Virus genome (UHGV): UHGV-0096064
Length of the DNA stretch: 64,000 nucleotides
Reading direction: 5' to 3' (one strand)
Source: a virus
Every line of letters begins with the position of its first letter. Positions within the stretch are counted from its first letter, which is position 1. The notes under the pieces are model-generated. The model had not been told where the DNA came from. It ran no database searches and worked only from the letters and a program-made list of their open reading frames with translations. Of this stretch, positions 36,137 to 62,741 are shown in pieces. Both the position numbers and the translations under genes were made by a program.

Positions 36137-36487
36137 TCAGTCGTCCGAAACCGTTCGTACCACAGCTTCTTCGTTTGCCGCTTGGATGAATCTGATTTCC
36201 TCAAACCTGTCATTGGCAACCTCCAGCTTGTCGTCATACTGACGAATGATAAGGAGTAAATCCTCAACCGTACAGATGGTATCACCCACGACAGGATGAG
36301 GAATAGGAGCAAGCAAATACTCCGGCACCCGCGTCGTATTCACCTTACTCACTTTCAGGGAAGGCGTGCAGCCCACGCACAAGCTCAGGAGGGATAACAA
36401 CAGACAGCACGCTGCGAACCTCTTGGCTCTGCGCAGCCATTTTAGACAGACGCTTCTCGAAAGATAGGAACTGTGTCTGGCGTTCAT
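36137..36487 (-). CDS. candidate o-spanin (outer-membrane lipoprotein)
   Basis: Signal peptide with a lipobox-like LLLSLLSLCVGC. Pro-containing ~70-aa mature part. Gene overlaps the 3' part of the i-spanin candidate in another frame (Rz/Rz1-like architecture). Confidence 0.45.
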   Translation of the reverse strand: MNARHSSYLSRSVCLKWLRRAKRFAACCLLLSLLSLCVGCTPSLKVSKVNTTRVPEYLLAPIPHPVVGDTICTVEDLLLIIRQYDDKLEVANDRFEEIRFIQAANEEAVVRTVSDD

Positions 36488-36704
36488 GCTCTCTATTCTC
36501 CAACCGTTGCGTCGCTTCTTCCACCCGTGCCGAACGAGCTATTTCTTCTGTCAACACCATATTCATGTCTTGCAGGGATTCTGTCAACAGCTCGTTGCGC
36601 TCACGCAAACTCTCCAACTCCCTGTACCCAAAATAAACCGCCAAGGCAACGACGCCGACAAACACCGCGCCTATGACGGCGGCAACCTTTTCCACTTCGG
36701 ACAT
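36345..36704 (-). CDS. candidate i-spanin
   Basis: N-terminal TM helix (VAAVIGAVFVGVVALAVYFGY) followed by coiled-coil-prone charged sequence. Located after the holin. Confidence 0.45.
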   Translation of the reverse strand: MSEVEKVAAVIGAVFVGVVALAVYFGYRELESLRERNELLTESLQDMNMVLTEEIARSARVEEATQRLENREHERQTQFLSFEKRLSKMAAQSQEVRSVLSVVIPPELVRGLHAFPESE

Positions 36705-37252
36705 GGCGGCACCTTCCCGTTGAGGGCCTCTTCGACATGGCGGCGCACTTCCGGGTCATTCAACTCCACGCTGATATGCGCGGCCACCCGCTGCCGAAGG
36801 ACGCCCATAATCTTCTCCAGCACCGGATGGATGGGACAGCCGAGGCTCCGCAGGTTGTTGATGATGCTCGCGGCTTCGGTGAGGCAGCAACAGAACAGAC
36901 CCCAATTCACGGCGTAGATGATGACCCCGGAAGTTCGGAAAAAGGCATAGCAAAGAAGCCCCGTGATGACCACCAGCGCCATATAGGTCAGGAACTTGCG
37001 CATCCAGTGGAACAGGTACTTGGGGTCGAACGTCCCGTAGACTCTGGACTTCAACACGCCCAAGACGAGATCGGCGGATGCGAACAGGATGTAGATGCCG
37101 AAGACGTTGACATCACCATAAAGCACCTCGGTGAAGAATGTAGCGACAGCGGCTATAACCATTTTAGCGTAGTAACCAAACATAAGCTGTCCTGCATAAT
37201 ATACGGTGCTGTCCCGAAGGCTCTCCAAGGACTCTATTACTGCATTCTTCAT
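36671..37252 (-). CDS. holin (phage holin 4_1 / LL-H-like family)
   Basis: Multiple TM segments. IYILFASADLVLGVLKSRVYG resembles the DxITG..K..SSKxGxxG core of family-4 holins. Adjacent to endolysin and spanin candidates. Confidence 0.55.
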   Translation of the reverse strand: MKNAVIESLESLRDSTVYYAGQLMFGYYAKMVIAAVATFFTEVLYGDVNVFGIYILFASADLVLGVLKSRVYGTFDPKYLFHWMRKFLTYMALVVITGLLCYAFFRTSGVIIYAVNWGLFCCCLTEAASIINNLRSLGCPIHPVLEKIMGVLRQRVAAHISVELNDPEVRRHVEEALNGKVPPCPKWKRLPPS

Positions 37253-37255
37253 AGA

Positions 37256-37864
37256 TTACCCCTCGAAATCCGAACGCTCAAGCAACGTATACGTAAAAGA
37301 ATTTCCATAGACCGACCGCGCTTTCTCCAATACTTCAATGAACTTCTTGTATTCCGCCGCCCCCGCGCCCACCGTGCAGCCCTCTGACCAGTTGTCCACC
37401 TGAATGGAGGTGTGGGTCTTGGACGACCAGTGAATGTTGATGCCGAACATCCCCCACTGGATGTCCCCATAGTCCATATACAAGTCCATGTTCTTGTCCC
37501 GGTATACGGCCACAGGCTTTATCTGGACGAGAGCCTTCTCCTTGCCCTTGTGCAAGCCCAGAGCATAGGCACCCCTGTATTGCCCCGGCACCATAACGGC
37601 CCGGCCATAGGATGGCGGGCTTATCATCGGCCCCTTGCCGGGGTCGGTGGTGCAGGCGAACCTGTCATCCACCCATTCACCATCCACCTTATATAACAGG
37701 CACAGCGTATCGTCAAATTTGTTGGTGACTTGGCGGCTGTTTCGGATGCCTACCACGTTGGTATTGTAGTCGCCCTCGGTAAACACGGCATACCCCTTGC
37801 GGCGCATGACCGAGAAAATATCGTCAAGGCTGTAGTCGACCATAGGATTCTCCTTTTGGAGCAC
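37256..37864 (-). CDS. putative endolysin (unrecognised fold; likely start at internal ATG ~37843 after AAGGAGA)
   Basis: 195-202-aa soluble protein immediately upstream of the holin. Called by position only. No match to lysozyme, amidase_2, M15, M23 or CHAP signatures by eye. Confidence 0.35.
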   Translation of the reverse strand: MLQKENPMVDYSLDDIFSVMRRKGYAVFTEGDYNTNVVGIRNSRQVTNKFDDTLCLLYKVDGEWVDDRFACTTDPGKGPMISPPSYGRAVMVPGQYRGAYALGLHKGKEKALVQIKPVAVYRDKNMDLYMDYGDIQWGMFGINIHWSSKTHTSIQVDNWSEGCTVGAGAAEYKKFIEVLEKARSVYGNSFTYTLLERSDFEG

Positions 37865-37901
37865 AGGGTAAAATAATTATGGGAAACCCTCAACAAAACC
37901 G

Positions 37902-37930
37902 TTGACATCCGGGACGAATGCGTCTATATA
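37902..37930 (+). promoter_or_regulatory. consensus sigma70-like promoter TTGACA-N17-TATATA
   Basis: TTGACA at 37902-37907, 17-nt spacer, TATATA at 37925-37930, on the plus strand inside a minus-strand block. Confidence 0.5.
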
Positions 37931-37936
37931 TGGCTC

Positions 37937-38136
37937 ACCGAAAAGGGAATGAACCACGAGCGGCCTGCCGAAGCTGGCTGGATTGACGGGGACTCGTAAT
38001 GGAAGACGGTCAGCTTGATGCTTCCCGCAACCGGTTTATATCTCTCTTTCGTAGAACTGCGCGATACCCACTATCAGCAGAACCCCCTTGGAAGGGTTTT
38101 ACCACCAACTTGTTCCTTCCAAGGGGGCTTTCTTTT
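37937..38136 (+). ncRNA. candidate ~200-nt small RNA (promoter to intrinsic terminator)
   Basis: Transcript predicted from the consensus promoter to the terminator at 38083-38136. Only a 58-codon low-complexity ORF (37999-38175) lies inside, and it runs through the terminator stem. Confidence 0.35.
38083..38136 (+). terminator. intrinsic terminator (13-bp stem, 19-nt loop, CTTTCTTTT tract)
   Basis: CCCCCTTGGAAGG ... CCTTCCAAGGGGG followed by a T-rich tract on the plus strand. Also lies 12 nt beyond the 3' end of minus-strand LRR gene 38149..39255. Confidence 0.6.
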
Positions 38137-38148
38137 GCCTATTGGCGC

Positions 38149-39255
38149 CTACCGCCAACTAGCTGGAATGTTTGAATAATTTGCCGCATTGGTACAATTC
38201 ATGAAAGTGAAGTCATGGGTCGGCGTGTTCGGGTACTTCGACCACAAGGCCGGGACGCTCGACGTAATGGCGGCATCATACGAGAACGAATGGGTGAAGT
38301 CCTCGACCGATTTGGTCGTATCGAACAACGATTCCGGCACCGTGATTAACCCTGTACAATTATTGAACACATAGGCGAAGTTGGTCACTTTGGTCGTGGT
38401 GCTGAACAGGCCAGACGGGACGACGATAATCTCAGGACACTCCATGAACGTGCCGTAAAAGCTGGTCGCCTCGGTGTTATTCTTGAAAAGCGTCGACGGG
38501 ACTTGAACCAGATTGCTGCACCGGGCGAACGTCCCGGCGAAAAGCTGCGCCTTGGAGTTGTTGGCGAACAGATTCTGCGGCACCTCACGCAACCCGTCGC
38601 AGCCGTCGAAGCAATAGGAAAAGTCCACGACATTGGGGTTCCCCGCGAACAGGTCAGCCGGAATGTCCGTCACCTTCACCAGCCCATGGAAGCAGTTCTG
38701 GAACCCGGTCGCCGCCTTGCAATTGGCAAACAAATTCTCCGGGATGGATGAAATCAGGGAACAGCCGTTGAAGCTGTTGGAGAACCCGGTACACTCCGTC
38801 CACAGGTCAAAGAGGCCCACCGGGATGGAGCGGAGATGCGAGCAGCCGTAGAAGTGGGAATAGGGGTCGGTCAGCACCGGGGGCAAGCTGTAGGTCTCGG
38901 CACCATCCGGCCCGATGTTGACAAGGGTCTCCCGAAAGAATTGGGTATGCGGGATAGCCGCCCGTTCAGGGTTGCTTCCCACGAACTGGACTTGGCGCAT
39001 GTCCTTTGCCCAGATGCGCATGGTGTAAACGCCGGACTGGTCATAGTCGTGGATGAGCTGGTCGGTATCGCTGCTTCCGGCCTTGACGGTCGTGACCTTG
39101 CCATCTCCCCACTCAATGAAGGTATCAATCAGGAATACCCCCCTCTCGTCTTCCAGATAACCGAGCGGCGCGCTCGTCCGCTTTCCCCCGGATGTGGTGG
39201 CCCCGGTGTCCACGACGAACACCATCGGCATCATATTGTCTCTGTATCCATACAT
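38149..39255 (-). CDS. LRR (BspA-like, LRR_5-type) repeat protein, paralog 1
   Basis: Repeats of F..C..L..I.IP..LF.NN..V..F...F. N-terminus MYGYRDN is shared with the other LRR genes. Start refined to an ATG 93 nt inside the track ORF. Confidence 0.7.
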   Translation of the reverse strand: MYGYRDNMMPMVFVVDTGATTSGGKRTSAPLGYLEDERGVFLIDTFIEWGDGKVTTVKAGSSDTDQLIHDYDQSGVYTMRIWAKDMRQVQFVGSNPERAAIPHTQFFRETLVNIGPDGAETYSLPPVLTDPYSHFYGCSHLRSIPVGLFDLWTECTGFSNSFNGCSLISSIPENLFANCKAATGFQNCFHGLVKVTDIPADLFAGNPNVVDFSYCFDGCDGLREVPQNLFANNSKAQLFAGTFARCSNLVQVPSTLFKNNTEATSFYGTFMECPEIIVVPSGLFSTTTKVTNFAYVFNNCTGLITVPESLFDTTKSVEDFTHSFSYDAAITSSVPALWSKYPNTPTHDFTFMNCTNAANYSNIPASWR

Positions 39256-39269
39256 AACGGCATATCCTA

Positions 39270-39285
39270 TGTGTGTGTGTGTGTG
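39270..39285. repeat. (TG)8 dinucleotide microsatellite in divergent promoter region
   Basis: tgtgtgtgtgtgtgtg lies 15-30 nt upstream of the LRR1 start codon (minus strand) and ~80 nt upstream of plus-strand gene 39366. Confidence 0.8.
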
Positions 39286-39365
39286 CATCCCTTGACGAAT
39301 CTGCCTGGCAGTGCATACTACCCCCAAAGAACACCCATTGTCCAACACCCAATACAGGAGCCAAT

Positions 39366-39953
39366 ATGGACAGACTCATTTGCGGCTACCCGGTCGTGCC
39401 CAAGGCGAAAACGCTCATGGTGTACTCCGACCCCGACTATACCAGCCCCTACCCCGGATATGCTCTGGAAGAAGTCATGAACTTCCGTGCGGACGACAAG
39501 CCCTATGTCGGCCCCGTCGAGTTTGAATACGACGACAGCATCACTGGCCCCGCGTCCGTGACGACCGACAGCAAAGGGAAAGCCACCGTCACCCTCACGC
39601 CGAACAGAGATGGCCTCTCCATCATCACATGCAAATTCGGGGGGGGAGAGTACGAACTCAGGTACAGTGTGCTAAACCATCAGGTGAGGTTCGGCGTCAG
39701 AACCATCTACCAGAACCGGAACACCTCCACAACGCTCTGGGTCAACAATAACTTGCAGGAATACAACGGGACGGTCTCCATCAAGTACCCGGCAGGGCTT
39801 ACCGGGCCGACCAGCGGTAAGATAAGCGCCGGGGCGATGGCAATCACCATCAACGGCTCCACGCTCGGACGCAAACAGGTCGACGTCCAGTTCGGCGTGC
39901 AGACCGCCTACTGCGCCGTGGAAGTCATTAAAGACCCGATGCCTCCTCAGTAA
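39366..39953 (+). CDS. hypothetical secreted/Ig-like protein
   Basis: 196 aa from an ATG preceded by AGGAG. Thr/Gly-rich beta composition (TVTLTPNRDGLSIITCKFGGGEYELRYSV). Confidence 0.45.
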   Translation: MDRLICGYPVVPKAKTLMVYSDPDYTSPYPGYALEEVMNFRADDKPYVGPVEFEYDDSITGPASVTTDSKGKATVTLTPNRDGLSIITCKFGGGEYELRYSVLNHQVRFGVRTIYQNRNTSTTLWVNNNLQEYNGTVSIKYPAGLTGPTSGKISAGAMAITINGSTLGRKQVDVQFGVQTAYCAVEVIKDPMPPQ

Positions 39954-40027
39954 CCCGTACACCCCCTGTCATTCCGGCAGGGGGTTTCGTTTTGAACAGG
40001 ATTGACTATCCATTACCCCCCTTAAAA

Positions 40028-40055
40028 TCCTTTGATAAACCCTATCATCAAAGGA
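40028..40055 (+). promoter_or_regulatory. inverted repeat TCCTTTGAT-N10-ATCAAAGGA overlapping the SD of gene 40063
   Basis: Perfect 9-bp arms. The right arm contains the AAGGA Shine-Dalgarno 8 nt upstream of the ATG at 40063. Confidence 0.5.
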
Positions 40056-40062
40056 TGGAACC

Positions 40063-40695
40063 ATGTACGGATATTTGGAAAACAAGGGCAGGGTCATGGG
40101 AAAACTCGCCTTCTCCTGCTCTTGGAACTTCGTCGGCGACCTCGCCAACAACCCCCGGTACAACGCGCTAGTGACGACGCCGAACCTCCTCTTCCTCTCG
40201 ACGTCCTATGAAGAGCCGGGAGCGGATGACGGGATGGAGTTCACCTCAAACGGCCTTGTCTGCACCGAGGGGTCGATTGCCACGAAGACGCAAACGGATT
40301 CAAGCTGGACAATCTCAGGACTTACGGGGTCACAAATCAACATGGGCGCGGGTTCGGCCAATGCCTTCAACATCATCAACTACCTGACCGCATGGGTCTG
40401 GAGTCCGAAGAAGGAACAGTGGTATTCTCTGGGCACACTCCCCTCGTATGCACCGGGGTCTCCGACTTCCGTCAACACCGACCAGCACCTGTCGATGGAT
40501 AGGCAAGGCGAGGTGAGCTACCTCGAAGCCAAGGAACCCTCTGACGACCACCGCATCATCCGGTGGGAAGACTTCGACTTCCACTTCCAGATGACGGCGG
40601 TCTATACGGACAAGTACGAGAGCTGCAACTTCAAGGAACCCATCGTGAACGTGCGCTTCGGCGCGCCCTACGAGTTCGACCCCGACTACTTCTAG
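40063..40695 (+). CDS. hypothetical protein (N-terminus MYGYLENK resembles the LRR paralog N-termini)
   Basis: 210-aa ORF on the opposite strand to the surrounding LRR genes. Confidence 0.5.
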   Translation: MYGYLENKGRVMGKLAFSCSWNFVGDLANNPRYNALVTTPNLLFLSTSYEEPGADDGMEFTSNGLVCTEGSIATKTQTDSSWTISGLTGSQINMGAGSANAFNIINYLTAWVWSPKKEQWYSLGTLPSYAPGSPTSVNTDQHLSMDRQGEVSYLEAKEPSDDHRIIRWEDFDFHFQMTAVYTDKYESCNFKEPIVNVRFGAPYEFDPDYF

Positions 40696-40801: not shown

Positions 40802-40834
40802 GAACCCCTCTCAAGTTGCAGTTGAGAGGGGTTC
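40802..40834. terminator. strong hairpin (13-bp perfect stem GAACCCCTCTCAA/TTGAGAGGGGTTC, 7-nt loop)
   Basis: Between convergent genes 40063..40695 (+) and the small membrane ORFs (-). TTTT follows on the minus strand. Confidence 0.5.
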
Positions 40835-40939
40835 GGAGGACTGGTCATGTCCATACGTTGGAGTACGTATACGGCAGGAGACCGAAATCAGGATGTTTCC
40901 TTAATTACCCCGCCAGTATACCCCGGACGGGGCTTGAAG

Positions 40940-41071
40940 TCAACAGCCGCCCCATCGCTCCATCGCGTAGATGAGGATGCAGGCTATCACCCATCCCCAG
41001 AAGATGCCGCTGCACGCGGCCCAGAACGGGACGCACAGGAAGACGAACGTGAGGAACAAGATGTAAGCCAT
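40940..41071 (-). CDS. small hydrophobic membrane peptide (43 aa), below track cutoff
   Basis: MAYILFLTFVFLCVPFWAACSGIFWGWVIACILIYAMERWGGC. Start codon 1 nt after the stop of 41073..41264. Hand-derived. Confidence 0.3.
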   Translation of the reverse strand: MAYILFLTFVFLCVPFWAACSGIFWGWVIACILIYAMERWGGC

Positions 41072-41072
41072 A

Positions 41073-41264
41073 CTAAAGAGTTCTCGTGGCCCAAAGGATG
41101 AAGGCGATGCAGGCCAAAAGGCTCACCAGCACGGCGCAGGCAATCGCGAAATCATCCGAGGGCACGGCCTCCCGGTTCTGGCAGGGGCACTGGACGACGA
41201 TGGTTTGGCACACAGGCTGGCACTGGACAGGCATCGGATACTGAACGGACGGAGAAGCATTCAT
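41073..41264 (-). CDS. small membrane protein (63 aa, C-terminal TM helix)
   Basis: Cys/Pro/Gln-rich N-terminus, hydrophobic C-terminus (AIACAVLVSLLACIAFILWA). Confidence 0.35.
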   Translation of the reverse strand: MNASPSVQYPMPVQCQPVCQTIVVQCPCQNREAVPSDDFAIACAVLVSLLACIAFILWATRTL

Positions 41265-41304
41265 ATCGAGGACTCCTTTGGGTTAAATGGTTCGAGAACG
41301 GATG

Positions 41305-42916
41305 TTACTTCCAATCGTCGGGAATGTCAACGTAGTTGGAAGCACTGGTCACGTTGCGGAAACACCTGCCATGGTCGGCGACATCAGGGTATGTCGTCCA
41401 TAGCGTGGGTACGGCGCTTGTTACCTGTGAGCAACCGAGGAATGTACTTACAAAACTTTCCACTTTGCTCTTATTGTCAAACAACCCGGACGGGATGCTC
41501 TTTAGAACCTGCCAATTCGCGAACGTATTCTGGAAAGATGTGACATCCGGCTGGTTCCTGAACAGTCCGGCGGGAATCTCCACACCAGCCCACCACTCGG
41601 AAAAGGCGTTATAGAAGTTGGTCGCCTTGATATTGTTGGCAAATATGTCTTCCGGTATATGCGTCATCTTGGACAAACCGGCAAACACGCTGCCGAAGTT
41701 AGTAACCTTGGTGTTCTTAGCGAAAAGGTTCGCAGGGATTTCTCCCACGATACTCTGACATCCGCTGAACGTGGCGAAGAACACCGTGGCATCCGGCTAG
41801 TTGTCGAACAGTCCTTCGGGTATCCCCGTTATCAGGCTGCAATCGGAGAACACATAGGAGAAATCGGTAATCTTGGGATTGTTGGCGAACAATTCCGCCG
41901 GGATAGTACCCGTCACCTTGTAGCAGCTTTCAAACAGATACTCGACATCCACGAGTTCCGTCATGGCGCTCAGGAGATTGCCCGGAATGGAACCCGTGAG
42001 GTTCCTGCAATTGTCGAACAGATGGGCCACGGTGGTGACTTTCGTATGCTTGGAGAACATGGAGGGCATGGGATTGGCCCAACTCGAACAATTTTGGAAG
42101 GTCGATGCAAACGAAGTCACTTCGAGATTGGTGTCGAATAATGTCGTGGGCACCGAAACCAGCGAGGTGCAACCATAGAACGTGTTGGTGAAGTCGACGA
42201 CTCTGGTGTTCTTGGCGAAAAGTCTGGACGGGATGGTGGTGATGCCGCACGTTGAGAATGTACCGTAAAAAAGTCGTGACGTCCGGGCAATTATCAAAGA
42301 GGTTGTTGGGAATGGCCTTGATGCCGAGGCATCCATAAAAACAATCGGAAAAACTGTTGACCTTGACGGTCTTGTCGAAGAGACCGGATGGGATTTCCGT
42401 CAAACCGGAACAGGTGTGGAACGTGGAGTTGAAGGTCTCGGTGTTCGGATTGCCGTCGAAAATCCCGGCGGGGATGGCCTTCAATTTGGAGCAGCCGTAG
42501 AACGCGCCCTTGAACGCGGTCGGGACAAGTTCCGGAAAGCTGTATCCGGTAGGGTCTTTCGGCACGATGCCGACAAGCGTGTCCTGCCACAAGTCCATGT
42601 TCTTTATGGCGTTCGTAAACGAGCACTTGCCGAGGTCGTCCGCCGTCACTCCTATGACGTACTCGCCCGGCGTCGCGTAAGTATGCGTGGCGTACTCGTC
42701 GAAATAGGCATCACTATACTCGATGCCCTTGGGGATGGTCGTAATGGTGCCGTCGCCCCAATCCACTTGTACGGCAGTCTGCGTTTTATAACCAGACATC
42801 ATATTCTCGAACGCATGGATGGAGCTCATGGCTTTCGTATTGCCCGATGTCGTAGCCTCGGTATTCACGACACAATAGACGTATTCCCTATCCTTATGAT
42901 TCAAATAAGCATACAT
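41305..42916 (-). pseudogene. LRR (BspA-like) paralog 2, disrupted by in-frame TAG (41797-41799) and a +1 frameshift in an A6/T6 run (42267-42272)
   Basis: Three track ORFs (41930..42940, 41797..42336, 41305..41784) are one continuous LRR reading frame. It reads DVTTF|YGTFSTCGITTIP across the homopolymer if one T is removed, and GLFDN-TAG-PDATVFFATFSGC across the stop. Confidence 0.65.
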
Positions 42917-42938
42917 AATGATACTCTCCTTATTTTCC

Positions 42939-42948
42939 ATATATATAT
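42939..42948. repeat. (AT)5 dinucleotide repeat upstream of LRR2 start
   Basis: atatatatat lies 23-32 nt upstream of the SD-preceded ATG (42914-42916) on the minus strand. Confidence 0.6.
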
Positions 42949-42992
42949 GGGGATTCAGTCAAAGAGCGACGCCATGTGAGGTCAGGAGGGGA

Positions 42993-44708
42993 CTACTTCC
43001 AGTCGTCAGGAATGTCGGCGTAGTTGGTCAACTTGCTGCAATTTCTGAAACATTTAGTTCCATTGGCGTCAGGATGAGTGACCCACAAGTCGGGAGCTGT
43101 TCCAACCAGCTTGTAACAATTCTCGAATATCTGGTGGAAATCCTTGATATTCGGATTGTTCACGAAGAGGTTCGTTGGCAGCGTCGTCAAATTGGTGCAT
43201 CCATTAAACATCATCTCCACGTCATCCAGAGCAGGATTGTTGTCAAACAACCCTTCCGGGATGGCACCCTCCAACGTGTTCAAACTATAGAAAGCGTAAG
43301 CCAAATTCTTTAACTTGGGGTTGTTGGCGAACAGCTTGGCGGGAATGGAGCCGTTGAAATCACAACCGTAGAACACGCTGTCGAGATACGTTAGCTCCGG
43401 GCAATTGGCAAAAAGATTCTCAGGAATGGGGCCGTTCAAATTGCATACCCTGAACAAACCGGAAAAAATCTCGGCAAGCGGGTTATGAGCGAACAACCCT
43501 TCCGGAATGGGGCCCACCAAACCATCACAACCATAGAAACAGCCGGAGAAGTTCGTCACTTCGGGGCAATTGGCAAAAAGGTTTTCAGGGATAGTTCCTG
43601 TGAGTCCCTCGCAGAACCGGAAGGTATCCGAAAACGTCTGCACCTTCGTGCAATTGGCAAAGAAGTTCTCAGGAATGGCACCAGTGAGCTTCTCACATTC
43701 ATAGAACGTCGCCTCGAAAGAAATAACTTCGGGGCAATTGGCGAACAAACCCGCAGGCAGGGAACCCGTCAGGCCCTTGCAACCGTAGAATGCAGAGACA
43801 AAGGTACCCGCCTTCCGGTTATTGGCGAAAAGATTCTCAGGAATGGAGCCAGTGATATTTTCGTCAAAATAGAACAATCGGTCAAAAGTGTAAGCTATGG
43901 TGTTGTGGGCAAAAAGGTTTTCAGGGATAGGCCCTGTCAATCCAGGGCAGTGGCTGAATACATAGGCGAACGATGTCACATTGGGATTGTTGGCGAAGAG
44001 ATTCTCAGGAATTTCAGTCAGTCCCTCACAACCATTGAACACGCTGTCAAACTTGTAAACTTTTGGACAATTGGCAAAAAGGTTTTCAGGGATAGACGTG
44101 ATATTTTCACAGCTATAGAATGTGGAAGCAAACGACTCGACCTTGGTGTTCTTGGTGAAAAGGTCTTCGGGAAGCGCACCCGTAAGTCCAAGACAATAAT
44201 AGAACGTATTTTCAAAAGTGGTGGCGTCTACGTTTTTGTAGAATATGCCTTTAGGAACCTGCGTCAACTTCTTGCAACTATAAAAGGCATAAGCAAGTCC
44301 GTCATGCCGGAAAACAGGCAGCGAATAGGACTCGGCACCCTTGGGGCCAATCCCGATAAGAGTTCTTCTATAGACATTCCATTCACTCTGGTTGATGTCA
44401 TAACCATGCAACTTGCAGACGCTGAAATCATCAGCGTAAACAGTCACAGTATATTCGCCGGGGGTGGCATAGTCATGCGTGGAATATTTATCCCAATACT
44501 GTGAATAAAACTCCGTACCCTTGGGAATTTCGGAAATTGAACCATCACCCCAATCAATAGTAATTGCCGTCAGGGATTGCTCATCAAGACCAAAGCTATT
44601 GAATGAATATACTGGAACCACAAACTCGGTATCACCCTCGTTGGTGGCCTCGGTATTTATAAGAAAGATAAGGCTTTCACGCGGCTCATTGTCACGATAA
44701 CCATACAT
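42993..44708 (-). CDS. LRR (BspA-like) repeat protein, paralog 3 (571 aa)
   Basis: About 18 LRR_5-type repeats (FxxCxxLTGxIPExLFANxP.V..F). Start refined to the MYGYRDNEP ATG with AAAGGAGA upstream. The track ORF extends a further 234 nt upstream. Confidence 0.7.
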   Translation of the reverse strand: MYGYRDNEPRESLIFLINTEATNEGDTEFVVPVYSFNSFGLDEQSLTAITIDWGDGSISEIPKGTEFYSQYWDKYSTHDYATPGEYTVTVYADDFSVCKLHGYDINQSEWNVYRRTLIGIGPKGAESYSLPVFRHDGLAYAFYSCKKLTQVPKGIFYKNVDATTFENTFYYCLGLTGALPEDLFTKNTKVESFASTFYSCENITSIPENLFANCPKVYKFDSVFNGCEGLTEIPENLFANNPNVTSFAYVFSHCPGLTGPIPENLFAHNTIAYTFDRLFYFDENITGSIPENLFANNRKAGTFVSAFYGCKGLTGSLPAGLFANCPEVISFEATFYECEKLTGAIPENFFANCTKVQTFSDTFRFCEGLTGTIPENLFANCPEVTNFSGCFYGCDGLVGPIPEGLFAHNPLAEIFSGLFRVCNLNGPIPENLFANCPELTYLDSVFYGCDFNGSIPAKLFANNPKLKNLAYAFYSLNTLEGAIPEGLFDNNPALDDVEMMFNGCTNLTTLPTNLFVNNPNIKDFHQIFENCYKLVGTAPDLWVTHPDANGTKCFRNCSKLTNYADIPDDWK

Positions 44709-44738
44709 ATTGGTTCTCCTTTTTGTCCTTTCTATACA

Positions 44739-44748
44739 AGAGAGAGAG
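44739..44748. repeat. (AG)5 dinucleotide repeat upstream of LRR3 start
   Basis: agagagagag lies ~31-40 nt upstream of the ATG at 44706-44708 (minus strand). Confidence 0.55.
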
Positions 44749-45255
44749 CTGGCAAGGACTGGAGCGGGACAGGGTGTGGGCCGGGAACTGGACTGGAAAT
44801 TTCTCCGAAAAAATTTTGGAGGGGGTGAATGCTGTGGATTCAGACGGGGGTCAACGAAGCCCCCACCCCCCCTCGGACTGGACTCATCTACGAACTCGGC
44901 GTCGACGGTGTCGCGCAATGTAGGTTGGCACAGGAATTGCATAGGAAAAGTTGCTCGAAGTCGCGAGCGTTCCTATATATGGAGTGGCCGGGGCGCGCCA
45001 AGTCCTTCGTCCAAATCCCCCGCCGGGCCGTCCCTACCCTCGACGCCCTCGACGCCCTCGACGCCCTCCCGCCCGCCTCACTCCATCACCTTGATGAAGC
45101 GGCCTGACGCGCCGCCTGCTCCACGTTCGCGGCTCATCCCTACCTTATATATACCCTGACCTTTTCGCCGCAAGCTGACGCGCTTCCCGTCCTGCTATGT
45201 CATCAGCTCCATCCAGTCCCGCCAGTCCCGCCAGTCCTACCAGACAACCAAGTGC

Positions 45256-45548
45256 ACAATGTAATATCAACAAACCTATATTACATTGTTACCTACACTG
45301 TAGTATTACACTGTTACAGGTGTTATATTGTAGCATTACACTGTAACGCGCAATGTACTTTTACAATGTAACACCTGTTACAATGTAATGTTATTGTAAA
45401 TTACATTGCACACTTGCTTACATTGTTATGGCATTGTTTTTTACATTGTTGCAGGTGTTACATTGTTTTTTACAATGTAAGTTACACTGTAAGTGTAATT
45501 ACATTGCATGTAACATTGCGTCGCGCAATGTAAATTTTTACAATGTAA
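45256..45548. repeat. dense array of 11-bp palindrome TTACAnTGTAA (about 17 copies in 300 bp; about 24 in 45250-46250) - putative iterons/operator array
   Basis: For example TTACAATGTAA at about 45361, 45378, 45470, 45538, 45817; TTACATTGTAA at about 45686 and 46119; TTACACTGTAA at about 45336 and 45482. Includes a perfect 12-bp IR ACAATGTAATAT-N10-ATATTACATTGT at 45256-45289. Confidence 0.75.
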
Positions 45549-45571
45549 TTACACACAGCGCGGGTTCCTTA

Positions 45572-45589
45572 TTGATAATGGATTATCAA
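45572..45589. promoter_or_regulatory. perfect palindrome TTGATAAT-GG-ATTATCAA (operator-like)
   Basis: 8-bp arms with a 2-bp spacer, immediately followed by CTTGCAACTTTTGCAA. Confidence 0.5.
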
Positions 45590-45752
45590 CTTGCAACTTT
45601 TGCAAAAAACGAGATTCCGTAAGTTGTTGAATTTGTTGACCCGGAAAAATTTTCGCAAACCCCAAAAAGTGGTGAAAAAATTACACAGGGAGAAAGTTAC
45701 ATTGTAAAAACGGGGACGAACGGGAGGACAGGAAGAGTAGAAAAATCAAGGG

Positions 45753-45811
45753 TTTATATATATTATTTTTTAAAAAAGAATAAAATATATATATGTACTA
45801 TGTAACTTTTT
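45753..45811. other. AT-rich stretch (~59 bp, 3-4 G/C) - candidate DNA-unwinding element
   Basis: tttatatatattattttttaaaaaagaataaaatatatatatgtactatgtaactttttacc in an otherwise ~60% GC genome. Flanked by iteron-like repeats. Confidence 0.45.
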
Positions 45812-46429
45812 ACCCCCTTACAATGTAACGGCCTATCCTAGTCGGCAAAAATGCAAAATGCTTTTTTCCAAATCGCCGAACTTGATTGTGAAAATTTTCA
45901 CCACTCAGGCGGCCTCGATTTACATAAGCTGCTATGTAACTTTTTGCGGAACCCCCCAAAAAAAACTTGCAAATTTGCATACCCCCTTGAAAATCAGCGT
46001 AACACTTCAACGATTTCAACAACTTGCAACCAATTTTAAAATGCAAGTGAATTTTTTCACACTTGCAACTAGTTGGAATATATTAGGATACATCTTGCAA
46101 GTCAATTTGCAACCCCATTTTTACATTGTAAAAAGTAAAATCGTGTTACTCGTTTACATTGCGCAACACCGTCGACGCCGCCTTACACTGCATAACGCAA
46201 TGTAAAAACAATGCAACAATCCTCACTATGTAATTACATTGTTCTGCCCCTTGTCCAGTTCTGAGCGCGACACACGCGACGCCGTCCCCAAGTCCTGAGC
46301 TCCGCCCTGTCGCCTCTGCCTTCCGAATCCGGTTTCACTATCCCCAATAATCCAGTTCACCTTAACATCTTGATATTCCTACTCAATCCAGTTCAACAAA
46401 AATAATTCCGAAAATTTTCGCTACAACTC

Positions 46430-61052: not shown

Positions 61053-62741
61053 ATGGATGCCATGAACGATTTGTTGGTTGTGCCTGATACTGGCGTCATC
61101 ATCGACAAGGCTCACAACAACTACATCCTGAACATCACCGACCCTGCCATCACAGCGCAGATTAAGGAGGCTGTTCCGTTTGTAATGACGCGAGCTTACG
61201 ACAAGGGGGAACTCGTCCTTCTCCCTGTCCATGATGACACGCTCCGGTTGCTCCGTAACATGAAGCTCCCCACGGCGGGGATGGAGCCGCTCCGGTGGCA
61301 GTACCATGCCCCGTTGATTGAGGGTGAGTTTAAAGCTATGGTGCATCAGGTCACATCGGCTGCGTTCATGGCATCCCATAATCGGTGCTTCAATACCAGT
61401 ACCATGCGAACAGGCAAGACTGGCAGCGTTATAATGTGTACCGATTATCTCCAGTCGGTAAAGGGAGTTACTGGAGCTGTCCTTATCGTGGCTACAGTTT
61501 CTAACTTGACAGGCGTGTGGAAGCGGACTATAGATAAGACACTGCCGAATAGAATAGCGGTAGTGGTTCATGGTGGTACAGGCAAGGCCGACCGTGTTCG
61601 TCGGCTTAATACTCCGGCTGATTATTATATCATTAACTACGATGGGGTTAAGATTGCTCATGATGAAATTAAGGCGATGGTACTTGACGGACGCATCAAC
61701 ATTGTTGTAGTGGATGAATTAACCCATTACGGCAACCCCGACTCCGGCAGGTTTATCGCTATGAACGACATCGTGAACAAAGGCCCCCGCACCCCGGACT
61801 ATGTCTACGGACTCACCGGGTCTCCGGGAAAGAACCCCATCCCCATCTTCGGGTTCGTCAAGCTCATCAACCCGGAGAAGCTCCCGTGCAAGCGGCTCAG
61901 TGTGTGGCAAGACTACACACAGTACCGCTTCGGTCGGGAGACGTGGCAGTGGAGGAACCGCCCCGGCTGCGACAAGATTATCTTCGAGACCATGCAGCCC
62001 AACATCCGGTTCGACAAGGCCGACATCATGGACTTGCCCCCGGTCGTCCGTCAGACGCGGGACTGCGACCTGTCGAAAGAACAGAAGGTCGCCTACAAGA
62101 AGATGCGGGAAGACATGATGGCTCTGACCCAAGACGGGACGGTCATCGAAGCCGTCCACAAGGCGAGCCTCACCCACAAGCTGTTCCAGATTGCGCTCGG
62201 TACGGCGATTGGCGCGGACAAGAAGGCCCTCATCCAGTTGGACAACGGCCCCCGGATTGCCACCATCGTCGAGGTCATCAAGGAAGCGGCTGCCAAGGTC
62301 GTCATCTTCTGCACCTACACCGGAGTCATCGACAGGCTGGCGAAACAGCTCAAGGACAAGGGCTATACGGTCGGCGTCGTGGATGGGCGCGTCACCGGGA
62401 AGAAGCGGGACACCCTGTTCCACGACTTCCAGAACAGGAAAGACCCCCACATCCTGATTGTCCACCCCCAGACGGTGGCGTTCGGTGTGGAGCTGGCGGC
62501 GGCGGACACCATGATATTCAACGGCCCGCCCCTGTCCGGGGACTTCATATACGAGCAGGCGCTTGAACGGCTGTCGAGCCTGAAACAGAAGGCGAGGCAA
62601 ATATCCATCATCCAGATAGTTGCAACGGAAGAAGAACGGAACTTCTTTTCGGGTCTGGATATGGGGGTCAAGTCGAGCAAGCTGGTCAACGACCTCTTCG
62701 CCGAGGTCACGAAGGCAGGAAACAAGGGAGGTTCCCAATGA
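61053..62741 (+). CDS. SNF2-family (SF2) helicase
   Basis: Motif I MRTGKTGS, motif II VVDELTHY (DExH). C-terminal helicase domain with HPQTVAFGVELAAADTMIFNGP. Confidence 0.8.
   Translation: MDAMNDLLVVPDTGVIIDKAHNNYILNITDPAITAQIKEAVPFVMTRAYDKGELVLLPVHDDTLRLLRNMKLPTAGMEPLRWQYHAPLIEGEFKAMVHQVTSAAFMASHNRCFNTSTMRTGKTGSVIMCTDYLQSVKGVTGAVLIVATVSNLTGVWKRTIDKTLPNRIAVVVHGGTGKADRVRRLNTPADYYIINYDGVKIAHDEIKAMVLDGRINIVVVDELTHYGNPDSGRFIAMNDIVNKGPRTPDYVYGLTGSPGKNPIPIFGFVKLINPEKLPCKRLSVWQDYTQYRFGRETWQWRNRPGCDKIIFETMQPNIRFDKADIMDLPPVVRQTRDCDLSKEQKVAYKKMREDMMALTQDGTVIEAVHKASLTHKLFQIALGTAIGADKKALIQLDNGPRIATIVEVIKEAAAKVVIFCTYTGVIDRLAKQLKDKGYTVGVVDGRVTGKKRDTLFHDFQNRKDPHILIVHPQTVAFGVELAAADTMIFNGPPLSGDFIYEQALERLSSLKQKARQISIIQIVATEEERNFFSGLDMGVKSSKLVNDLFAEVTKAGNKGGSQ

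Follow-up and report, generated by a model that had tools for sequence, protein, structure and literature searches.

A gap of 305 nt (37844-38148) in the virus genome UHGV-0096064, lying between an endolysin-like gene and a BspA-type leucine-rich repeat (LRR) gene, carries at 37902-38136 a set of elements that together resemble a small gene for a non-coding RNA. The window referred to below is the whole 64,000-nt stretch of this genome that was analysed. Both neighbouring genes are encoded on the minus strand according to the open reading frame (ORF) map, as the initial annotation of the sequence had said, and the elements in the gap read on the plus strand. The term moron comes from lambdoid genomics and denotes a surplus gene, inserted between phage genes, that brings along a sigma-70 promoter and a factor-independent terminator of its own. 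We hold with moderate confidence that 37902-38136 is an autonomous moron-like gene, whose predicted product is a structured non-coding RNA of ~200 nt. To our knowledge, phage-encoded small RNAs (sRNAs) are known from few model phages, and almost none come from uncultured gut phages. The features of the gap are as follows.

37902..37907, plus strand: -35 hexamer TTGACA of the predicted sRNA promoter, P_R (direct reading; invariant in ~13 related contigs)
37925..37930, plus strand: -10 hexamer TATATA of P_R, after a 17-nt spacer (direct reading)
37939..38051, plus strand: P1, a long imperfect hairpin forming the body of the RNA (minimum free energy (MFE) and centroid folds agree)
37945..37974, plus strand: variable block 1, in the 5' strand of P1 (alignments A2 and A3, divergence profile)
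37975..38012, plus strand: apex and upper stem of P1, 38 nt (A and B identical, B' with two changes)
38013..38040, plus strand: variable block 2, in the 3' strand of P1, with the compensatory partners of block 1 (alignment A3)
38057..38080, plus strand: P2, a small hairpin (CUGC..GAUA CCCAC UAUC..GCAG), invariant
38083..38136, plus strand: intrinsic terminator with a 13-bp G+C-rich stem and a 19-nt loop, then C and the U-tract UUUCUUUU
37893..37888 and 37870..37865, minus strand: TTGAGG and TACCCT with a 17-nt spacer, a candidate lysis-operon promoter back-to-back with P_R (proposed from reading the letters only)

Promoter and terminator

Near relatives of the window were gathered by protein-anchored look-ups as ~13 contigs from different metagenomes, whose lysins are 98-100% identical to that of the window. 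The unit is present in all of them; both promoter hexamers are invariant throughout, and four sites in or beside the spacer vary. Transcription from P_R would start near 37937. This promoter had been described as textbook or near-perfect, and although its hexamers, spacer and coordinates were given exactly, its quality was overstated, the -10 hexamer agreeing with the consensus at only 4/6 positions. Because of this 4/6 match without the final T, a consensus promoter scan leaves P_R out. The accompanying claim that such a promoter is rare by chance holds, since the pattern TTGACA-N16-18-TATA occurs twice on the two strands of the window vs 0.07 expected from shuffles. The sole other TTGACA-N17-TATA match, at 61506-61532 on the plus strand, lies within an SNF2-helicase ORF region.

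The related pattern TTGACA-N17-TAnnnT occurs four times in the window vs 0.79 expected, three of these four sites being close upstream of ORFs, and 29 promoter-like sites are found in the 39-58 kb region vs 13.7 expected. A worry raised at the outset, that the host may not use sigma-70-type promoters, is eased by the enrichment of TTGACA-N17-TAnnnT, and we read the phage as one that uses promoters of this type. On the lysin strand, the TTGAGG of the candidate lysis-operon promoter and the TTGACA of P_R place the two -35 boxes 8 bp apart; CATAAT at 37881..37876 is an alternative -10 for the lysis-operon promoter.

The terminator arms, CCCCCTTGGAAGG (38083-38095) and CCTTCCAAGGGGG (38115-38127), form a 13-bp perfect inverted repeat, which is one of just two of such quality in the 64 kb, and are followed by CTTTCTTTTG. 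Stem, position, strand and tail all read as first described, and no second copy of the hairpin was found elsewhere in the window. The U-tract is present on the plus strand only; the tail beyond the hairpin on the minus strand is UUCUGCUGAU, which is poor, so that the hairpin is oriented for termination of plus-strand transcription. Its stem is unchanged in every related contig, and a single change, in the allele of contig L001, falls at the base of the loop.

A structured RNA in two allelic forms

Two discrete forms of the RNA body are found: allele A, in the window and seven other contigs, and allele B, in four contigs, with a sub-variant B' in L001. Between them 23-24 positions are changed, none of which falls outside 37945-38040, and the flanks have 0-4 differences per 100 nt, which makes the divergence between alleles ~10x that of the flanking sequence. 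The two variable blocks are the two strands of hairpin P1, and at the internal-loop segment 37963-37972 alleles A and B differ at 10/10 positions. Identical lysins accompany allele A and allele B, from which it follows that the hairpin was exchanged or evolved independently of its flanks.

Three compensatory pairs are found in the inner stem of P1 in alignment A3, 42-85 (A-U to G-C), 44-83 (C-G to U-A) and 41-86 (A-U to U-A). When the 3' partners are slid by 1-3 columns, 0-1 double-compensatory pairs remain and pairing falls from 92% to 39-49%. The outer stem of P1 re-forms in a shifted register in allele B. The structure of P1 at the level of specific pairs is thus supported by these comparisons, as far as alignments and predicted folds can tell.

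The fold is also strand-specific. Energies for the P1 region in the three alleles are -41.2, -38.6 and -35.1 kcal/mol on the plus strand vs -31.1, -27.6 and -25.0 kcal/mol on the minus strand, and the advantage of the plus-strand fold of the body is put at 8-10 kcal/mol in all three. Without the terminator, the body has z = -2.0 on the plus and +0.3 on the minus strand. The difference reflects G-U pairs, which become C-A mismatches on the other strand. Taken with the plus-strand U-tract, the strand-specific fold indicates that the RNA would be read from the plus strand. The whole RNA has a z-score of -4.0, which is largely due to the terminator. Selection on the RNA itself is suggested by three features: an apex common to A and B, a 3' half that does not vary, and stems in which changes are compensated.

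In one contig from a public metagenome (L236:121-208, minus orientation) the sequence breaks within the sRNA apex into Nextera adapter (CTGTCTCTTATACACATCTCCGAGCCCACGAGAC), which is an assembly artefact.

Coding potential and searches for known families

The 58-codon ORF at 37999-38175 does pass through the terminator, as had been noted, but it is not the only ORF in the gap: three more are present, one of 54 codons in a different plus frame, one of 32 codons on the minus strand and a micro-ORF of 16 codons at 37950-38000. None of these is gene-like. The 58-aa product has no Pfam match and no homologue, nor even its own copy, among 5.8 billion predicted proteins, and no gene is called in the gap in any related contig. 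The micro-ORF stays in frame across the alleles, but there is no spacing between its Shine-Dalgarno sequence and its start codon, and just one of the two variable blocks is explained by it.

Searches for known RNAs were likewise negative. ARAGORN reported no tRNA or tmRNA gene in the window and at the related loci, and the Rfam comparison proposed at the outset matched no family of Rfam 15 at gathering thresholds in the whole window, the sRNA locus included, or at the related loci; 6S, Y RNA/YrlA, the phage motifs already known, ribozymes and riboswitches were among the families covered. A permissive Rfam scan of 37700-38300 (E<=10) gave two chance-level matches to the terminator, His_leader (16.7 vs 49 bits) and suhB (14.1 vs 41). 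When the RNA was compared by blastn and nhmmer (--max) with 1.26 Mb of fetched loci, homologues appeared in the near-identical phage group only. Exact-pattern scans with the apex and the P2 region recovered a single known relative from IMG/VR, and none for the apex from GTDB genomes. Protein-anchored searches of IMG/VR, JGI metagenomes and GTDB returned mostly unrelated phages, with lysins of <=51% identity and without the unit, and gave no host. The sole closer genome match in these searches is a 64-kb contig of the phage family (L147/L056, JAFQBW010000009.1) binned in GenBank with a goat-caecum "Methanocorpusculum sp." metagenome-assembled genome. This binning is almost certainly wrong and carries no host information, because the contig has Rz-like lysis genes and sigma-70-type promoters.

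Retron msr-msd and CRISPR-derived or guide RNAs (bridge RNA, omega RNA, RNA anti-CRISPR), considered solely on account of the variable segment, were rejected, as the neighbours are endolysin-like and LRR genes, with no reverse transcriptase, recombinase or nuclease gene beside the unit, and the hairpin has no second copy in the window. An RNA of the phi29 pRNA kind was dropped along with the retron, CRISPR-like and bridge/omega ideas, in that the partner genes or the genome type are absent.

The arrangement of an sRNA gene, as proposed in the initial annotation, agrees with what is observed here. The sequence elements and their conservation, that of the promoter above all, the plus-strand U-tract, the two alleles, the strand-specific and compensated fold and the lack of a coding signal support a discrete, putatively non-coding transcription unit on the plus strand.

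The same position in related phages

More distant relatives, with lysins 55-68% identical to that of the window, keep the architecture but not the sequence of the RNA. In L054, L237, L146, L049 and L053 a TTGACA promoter, a structured RNA of 80-350 nt and a terminator are found in synteny, divergent from the lysin. The TTGACA is on the strand opposite to the lysin. Its distance from the lysin ATG is 58-59 nt in three lineages (the window group, the L054 group, L059/L060); the offset is 49 nt in L146 and 83 nt in L049/L053, and L237 has it at the equivalent place. TGTCAA-N7-TTGACA in L054, L059 and L237 represents back-to-back -35 boxes of divergent promoters. The units are as follows.

L054: 190-nt RNA, z = -3.9, with terminator
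L237/L238: 215-nt RNA, z = -5.9, with terminator; unrelated to that of L054 though the lysins are 88% identical
L146: 80-nt RNA with terminator
L049:1900-2430, L053:2000-2430 and L144:1-300: two tandem TTGACA promoters upstream of the lysin
L059/L060: 140-nt leader and a gene for a 109-aa protein behind the promoter

Without their terminators the bodies from relatives are still structured, with z = -3.5 and -5.8. Of the two tandem promoters of L049 and L053, the second leads to a clear terminator and the first to a weaker hairpin that has a short T-run; relative to L053, L049 has ~120 nt inserted in its second unit, and the L144 contig stops inside its second unit. The unit of L237 (L237:1166-1440) and L238 has an extended -10 (TGTATAAT) and a body of long perfect hairpins that are equally stable on both strands.

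The position itself may serve as a rule for finding more candidates: a divergent TTGACA near the lysin start, usually followed by a structured RNA of 80-350 nt and a terminator. A broader idea, which we regard as doubtful, is that the gap beside the lysis cassette of these ~65-kb gut phages is a rapidly turning-over RNA slot, framed by a conserved promoter of host type and a terminator, whose highly structured RNA differs from lineage to lineage and even between alleles of one phage species. The bodies would then be under diversifying selection as counter-defence decoys or as determinants of superinfection specificity, with the apex as effector site and the variable part of P1 as specificity module. 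Should the turnover of the slot reflect selection on the RNA, the locus would be of considerably higher interest.

Target searches and proposed function

An action on the lysis or LRR transcripts had been suggested earlier. None of the tests supports this: the unit is divergent from the lysin without overlap and ends 12 nt before the LRR stop codon, the complementarity searches of the phage gave nothing above chance, and no Rfam family matches. Other leads were set aside. Full-length RNAduplex runs against translation-initiation regions gave artefactual whole-molecule duplexes and were discarded. The 13 nt that the terminator loop has in common with 183-195 of the window are in the same sense, not complementary, and at chance level, and an anti-Shine-Dalgarno-like CCUCC in the RNAs of 3/6 lineages is too weak to count as evidence.

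The course of events that we infer, including transcription, termination, early timing and every functional step, is the following. Host sigma-70 RNA polymerase would start at TTGACA/TATATA, probably early in infection, head away from the lysin gene and end at the strong terminator, a little short of the convergent LRR gene. Its transcript would consist of P1, with a constrained apex and fast-changing middle stems and internal loop, of P2, and of the terminator hairpin with its U-tail. Most likely this would be a regulatory or decoy RNA acting in trans on a host RNA or protein, a phage partner being conceivable as well. Action could proceed through the apex or the 3' half, and the variable P1 might be either a structural scaffold or a determinant of specificity. 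The candidate is concrete and well bounded, and its two natural alleles could be exchanged in experiments.

A number of results weigh against an autonomous gene for a functional sRNA. P_R scores 10/12, and its TATATA, with four of the six bases of TATAAT, lacks the conserved final T. The body folded without the terminator exceeds shuffles in stability only modestly (z about -2). Covariation rests on three distinct sequences only, and 45/500 shuffles reach the observed score. Randomising the mutations of allele A and comparing folding energies gave 44/300 and 13/300 for L009 and 116/300 and 113/300 for L001, so that at the level of MFE the result is marginal for L009 and not significant for L001; we therefore claim compensation at the level of pairs and not conservation of energy. 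A search of the 64-kb window for exact complementarity to phage targets found nothing above chance, and the best duplex energies of four accessible segments against all 40-nt windows were at the expectation for the number of tests or fell on non-coding strands. Finally, the RNA bodies of the related lineages have no mutual similarity by blastn or nhmmer, which counts against the sRNA gene because the free drift of a functionless transcript would give the same picture.

Alternative explanations

The last of these points leads to the view that the promoter matters and the RNA is a by-product. P_R, overlapping the lysis-operon promoter, might occlude or modulate it early or oppose read-through from upstream; the terminator would merely halt antisense transcription into the neighbour, and the body would be essentially free to drift. 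The promoter place and TGTCAA-N7-TTGACA are indeed kept where the bodies are unrelated, even between phages with 88% identical lysins, units range in length from 80 to 350 nt, L059/L060 have a protein gene behind this promoter, and the searches for phage targets found none. Compensatory changes and a 38-nt apex identical in A and B within a segment that has diverged by ~25% argue, however, for constraint on the RNA, as do the strand-specific fold and the marked structure of the bodies in relatives (z = -3.5 and -5.8 as above). We think this explanation unlikely, and if the bodies were functionless the locus would illustrate promoter-level control of a lysis operon. A different role for the sequence is that of a cis-antisense RNA: transcripts reading through from the LRR gene would carry the complement of the sRNA ahead of the lysin, and pairing followed by cleavage or termination would shield the lysis cassette. 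Read-through is plausible given the weak minus-strand tail UUCUGCUGAU, cis-encoded pairs co-vary automatically and would tolerate replacement of alleles, and an endolysin-associated antisense RNA has been described in phage PAK_P4 (PMC12197685). Yet the candidate lysin promoter is ~15-40 nt from the ribosome-binding site of the lysin, so that the lysis mRNA need not hold the complementary region, and L054 and L237 have no upstream gene on the lysin strand and hence nothing to read through. This makes the cis-antisense role distinctly unlikely.

The remaining explanations are less probable still. A promoter, ~200 nt and a strong terminator beside lysis genes recall a promoter-proximal terminated leader like the lambda PR'-tR' 6S RNA/StxS, in which the short RNA is the default and an antiterminator permits read-through. 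In several relatives the genes past the terminator share the strand of the unit, and StxS is a case in which a by-product of this sort became a regulator (PMC7547250). The unit in the window points away from the lysis and late genes, however, and head-on into the 1.2-kb convergent LRR gene; the plus-strand ORFs at 39273-40695 start beyond that gene, so a transcript would have to cross all of it in antisense, and no antiterminator was identified. We consider a terminated leader improbable. Another reading takes the hairpin as nothing but a terminator for the LRR gene, and the promoter as a chance match or a part of the lysin promoter region, with no plus-strand RNA at all. It has in its favour that the hairpin sets in 21 nt past the stop codon of that gene, that the -10 is imperfect and that the consensus scan does not list P_R. 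The U-tract is on the wrong strand for this, the promoter pattern has a chance expectation of 0.07 per window, and an opposite-strand promoter and U-tract recur with unrelated sequences in L146, L054, L237, L049 and L053, which leaves an LRR terminator very improbable. That the locus codes for a small protein, whether from the 58-aa ORF (37999-38175) or from the micro-ORF of 16 codons (37950-38000), is to us the least credible of these explanations and hardly to be expected. Both ORFs are open in all alleles, GGGGA stands 6 nt ahead of the ATG at 37999, and the 109-aa protein gene does occupy the slot in L059. But the 58-aa ORF passes the terminator and has its stop codon beyond the U-tract, without Pfam match or homologue among the 5.8 billion proteins, the gap has no called gene in related contigs, and the micro-ORF has its Shine-Dalgarno sequence against the start codon and explains one of two variable blocks.

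Flanking genes and the phage

The genes on either side of the predicted sRNA gene are listed here.

37256-37843, minus strand: endolysin-like gene, first of the lysis cassette (matches phrog_3000 and phrog_33083; PHROG, Pfam)
36671-37252: holin of the lysis cassette (PHROG/Pfam matches)
36345-36704 and 36137-36487: Rz/Rz1-like spanins of the lysis cassette (PHROG/Pfam matches)
38149-39348, minus strand: BspA-type LRR gene, convergent with the sRNA unit (phrog_9915)

The true start of the endolysin-like gene is the ATG at 37843, with the ribosome-binding site AAGGAG at 37855..37850. On the other side, the LRR stop codon is 12 nt past the U-tract and the terminator hairpin starts 21 nt after it. 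In a comparison of 38500-38800 with L009, L234 and L235, the LRR gene shows an internal replacement or deletion in some relatives (236-aa vs 368-aa product). Further LRR genes at 41305-44942 match phrog_9915 or Pfam LRR_5, and the stretch from the lysis to the early region has the look of a variable cluster of LRR genes.

The Rz/Rz1-like spanins in the lysis cassette point to a Gram-negative host. The phage is new, in that the nearest DNA polymerases of cultured phages are merely 28% identical (Pseudomonas phages phiR18 and KPP25), and a search of INPHARED phage DNA gave no match. It looks virulent from its gene content: a family A DNA polymerase was found, and no integrase was noticed among those phage ORFs that were scanned.

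In a gene-free, low-GC region at 45200-46300 (GC 0.45), ACAATGTAA/ACATTGT palindromes recur and TTGACA-type promoters are clustered on both strands; the region is probably an early regulatory or origin region. Its ACATTGTA motif is also present in a 1.7-kb gene-free stretch of L054 (L054:500-2220), adjoining the sRNA unit of that phage. The ACATTGT repeats common to the L054 stretch and to 45.2-46.3 kb of the window suggest that this lineage gained its LRR and Big-domain genes (38.1-45 kb) by insertion at a place where the sRNA unit had adjoined the regulatory region. What looks like a second moron-like unit lies on the minus strand at 40802-41330, with a TTGACA-17-TAACAT promoter (41330..41302), a strongly hydrophobic 43-aa ORF (41071..40940, MAYILFLTFVFLCVPFWAACSGIFWGWVIACILIYAMERWGGC) and a 13-bp perfect hairpin (40802-40834). 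The ORF could specify a short membrane peptide that serves, for example, as toxin, exclusion factor or holin modulator.

Comparison with known systems

The unit is intergenic, has its own promoter and Rho-independent terminator on the same strand and, judged by Pfam, protein homology and gene calls, appears to hold no translated ORF, which are features of a stand-alone sRNA gene. Trans-acting phage sRNAs of this kind are lambda PreS, VpdS of VP882 and the prophage RNAs AgvB and AsxR (PMC12197685). Like them, the unit would give a short intergenic RNA from its own promoter, with a Rho-independent terminator and U-tail, in a Gram-negative host, both its transcription and the host being predictions. 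Unlike them, it is ~200 nt and thus longer than most, has a long hairpin in two allelic forms, and has no relation to them in sequence or Rfam. It falls into no described RNA family and is a credible new candidate for a phage sRNA.

Two RNAs that are found close to phage lysis genes may also be compared. Lambda 6S RNA/StxS is a short transcript from the late promoter PR' that is terminated at tR' (PMC7547250). The likeness lies in a host-polymerase promoter, a short transcript and a strong terminator directly beside the lysis cassette, but the unit points away from the lysis genes, faces a convergent gene and has no antiterminator context. A late leader of the PR'-tR' type was rejected, the unit being on the plus strand and the lysis genes on the minus strand and not co-oriented. 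In a Pseudomonas phage the endolysin gene has an associated cis-antisense RNA, PAK_P4as15, which is ~550 nt long (PMC12197685; PMC5563952). It too is a phage RNA encoded on the opposite strand beside an endolysin gene, whereas the unit in the window diverges from the lysin gene and has no sequence in common with it. Antisense to the endolysin gene in the manner of PAK_P4as15 was rejected, as the predicted transcript (37937-38136) has its 5' end 94 nt past the lysin ATG and leads in the opposite direction.

The immunity antisense RNAs c4 of P1/P7 and sar of P22 have allele-specific loops (PMC12197685). The resemblance is that of a small structured phage RNA in which a short segment differs among close relatives and pairing is kept; they differ in that no complementary phage site was found for the unit RNA and that it has no antirepressor or immunity context.

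A further comparison is with the morons. The unit has its own promoter and terminator, its content varies among close relatives, and it lies between conserved phage genes. It resembles a moron as an autonomous cassette of promoter, cargo and terminator between two genes of a long operon-like block, with cargo that differs in close relatives. It departs from the classical definition in that its cargo would be a non-coding structured RNA and not a protein, and in that the phage looks virulent. If the bodies are functional, these phages would diversify small RNAs at a fixed slot much as other phages do protein morons. The less ordinary aspect of this system would be the combination of a fixed slot, a promoter that is kept and a structured RNA that is quickly replaced, with two alleles in one phage species.

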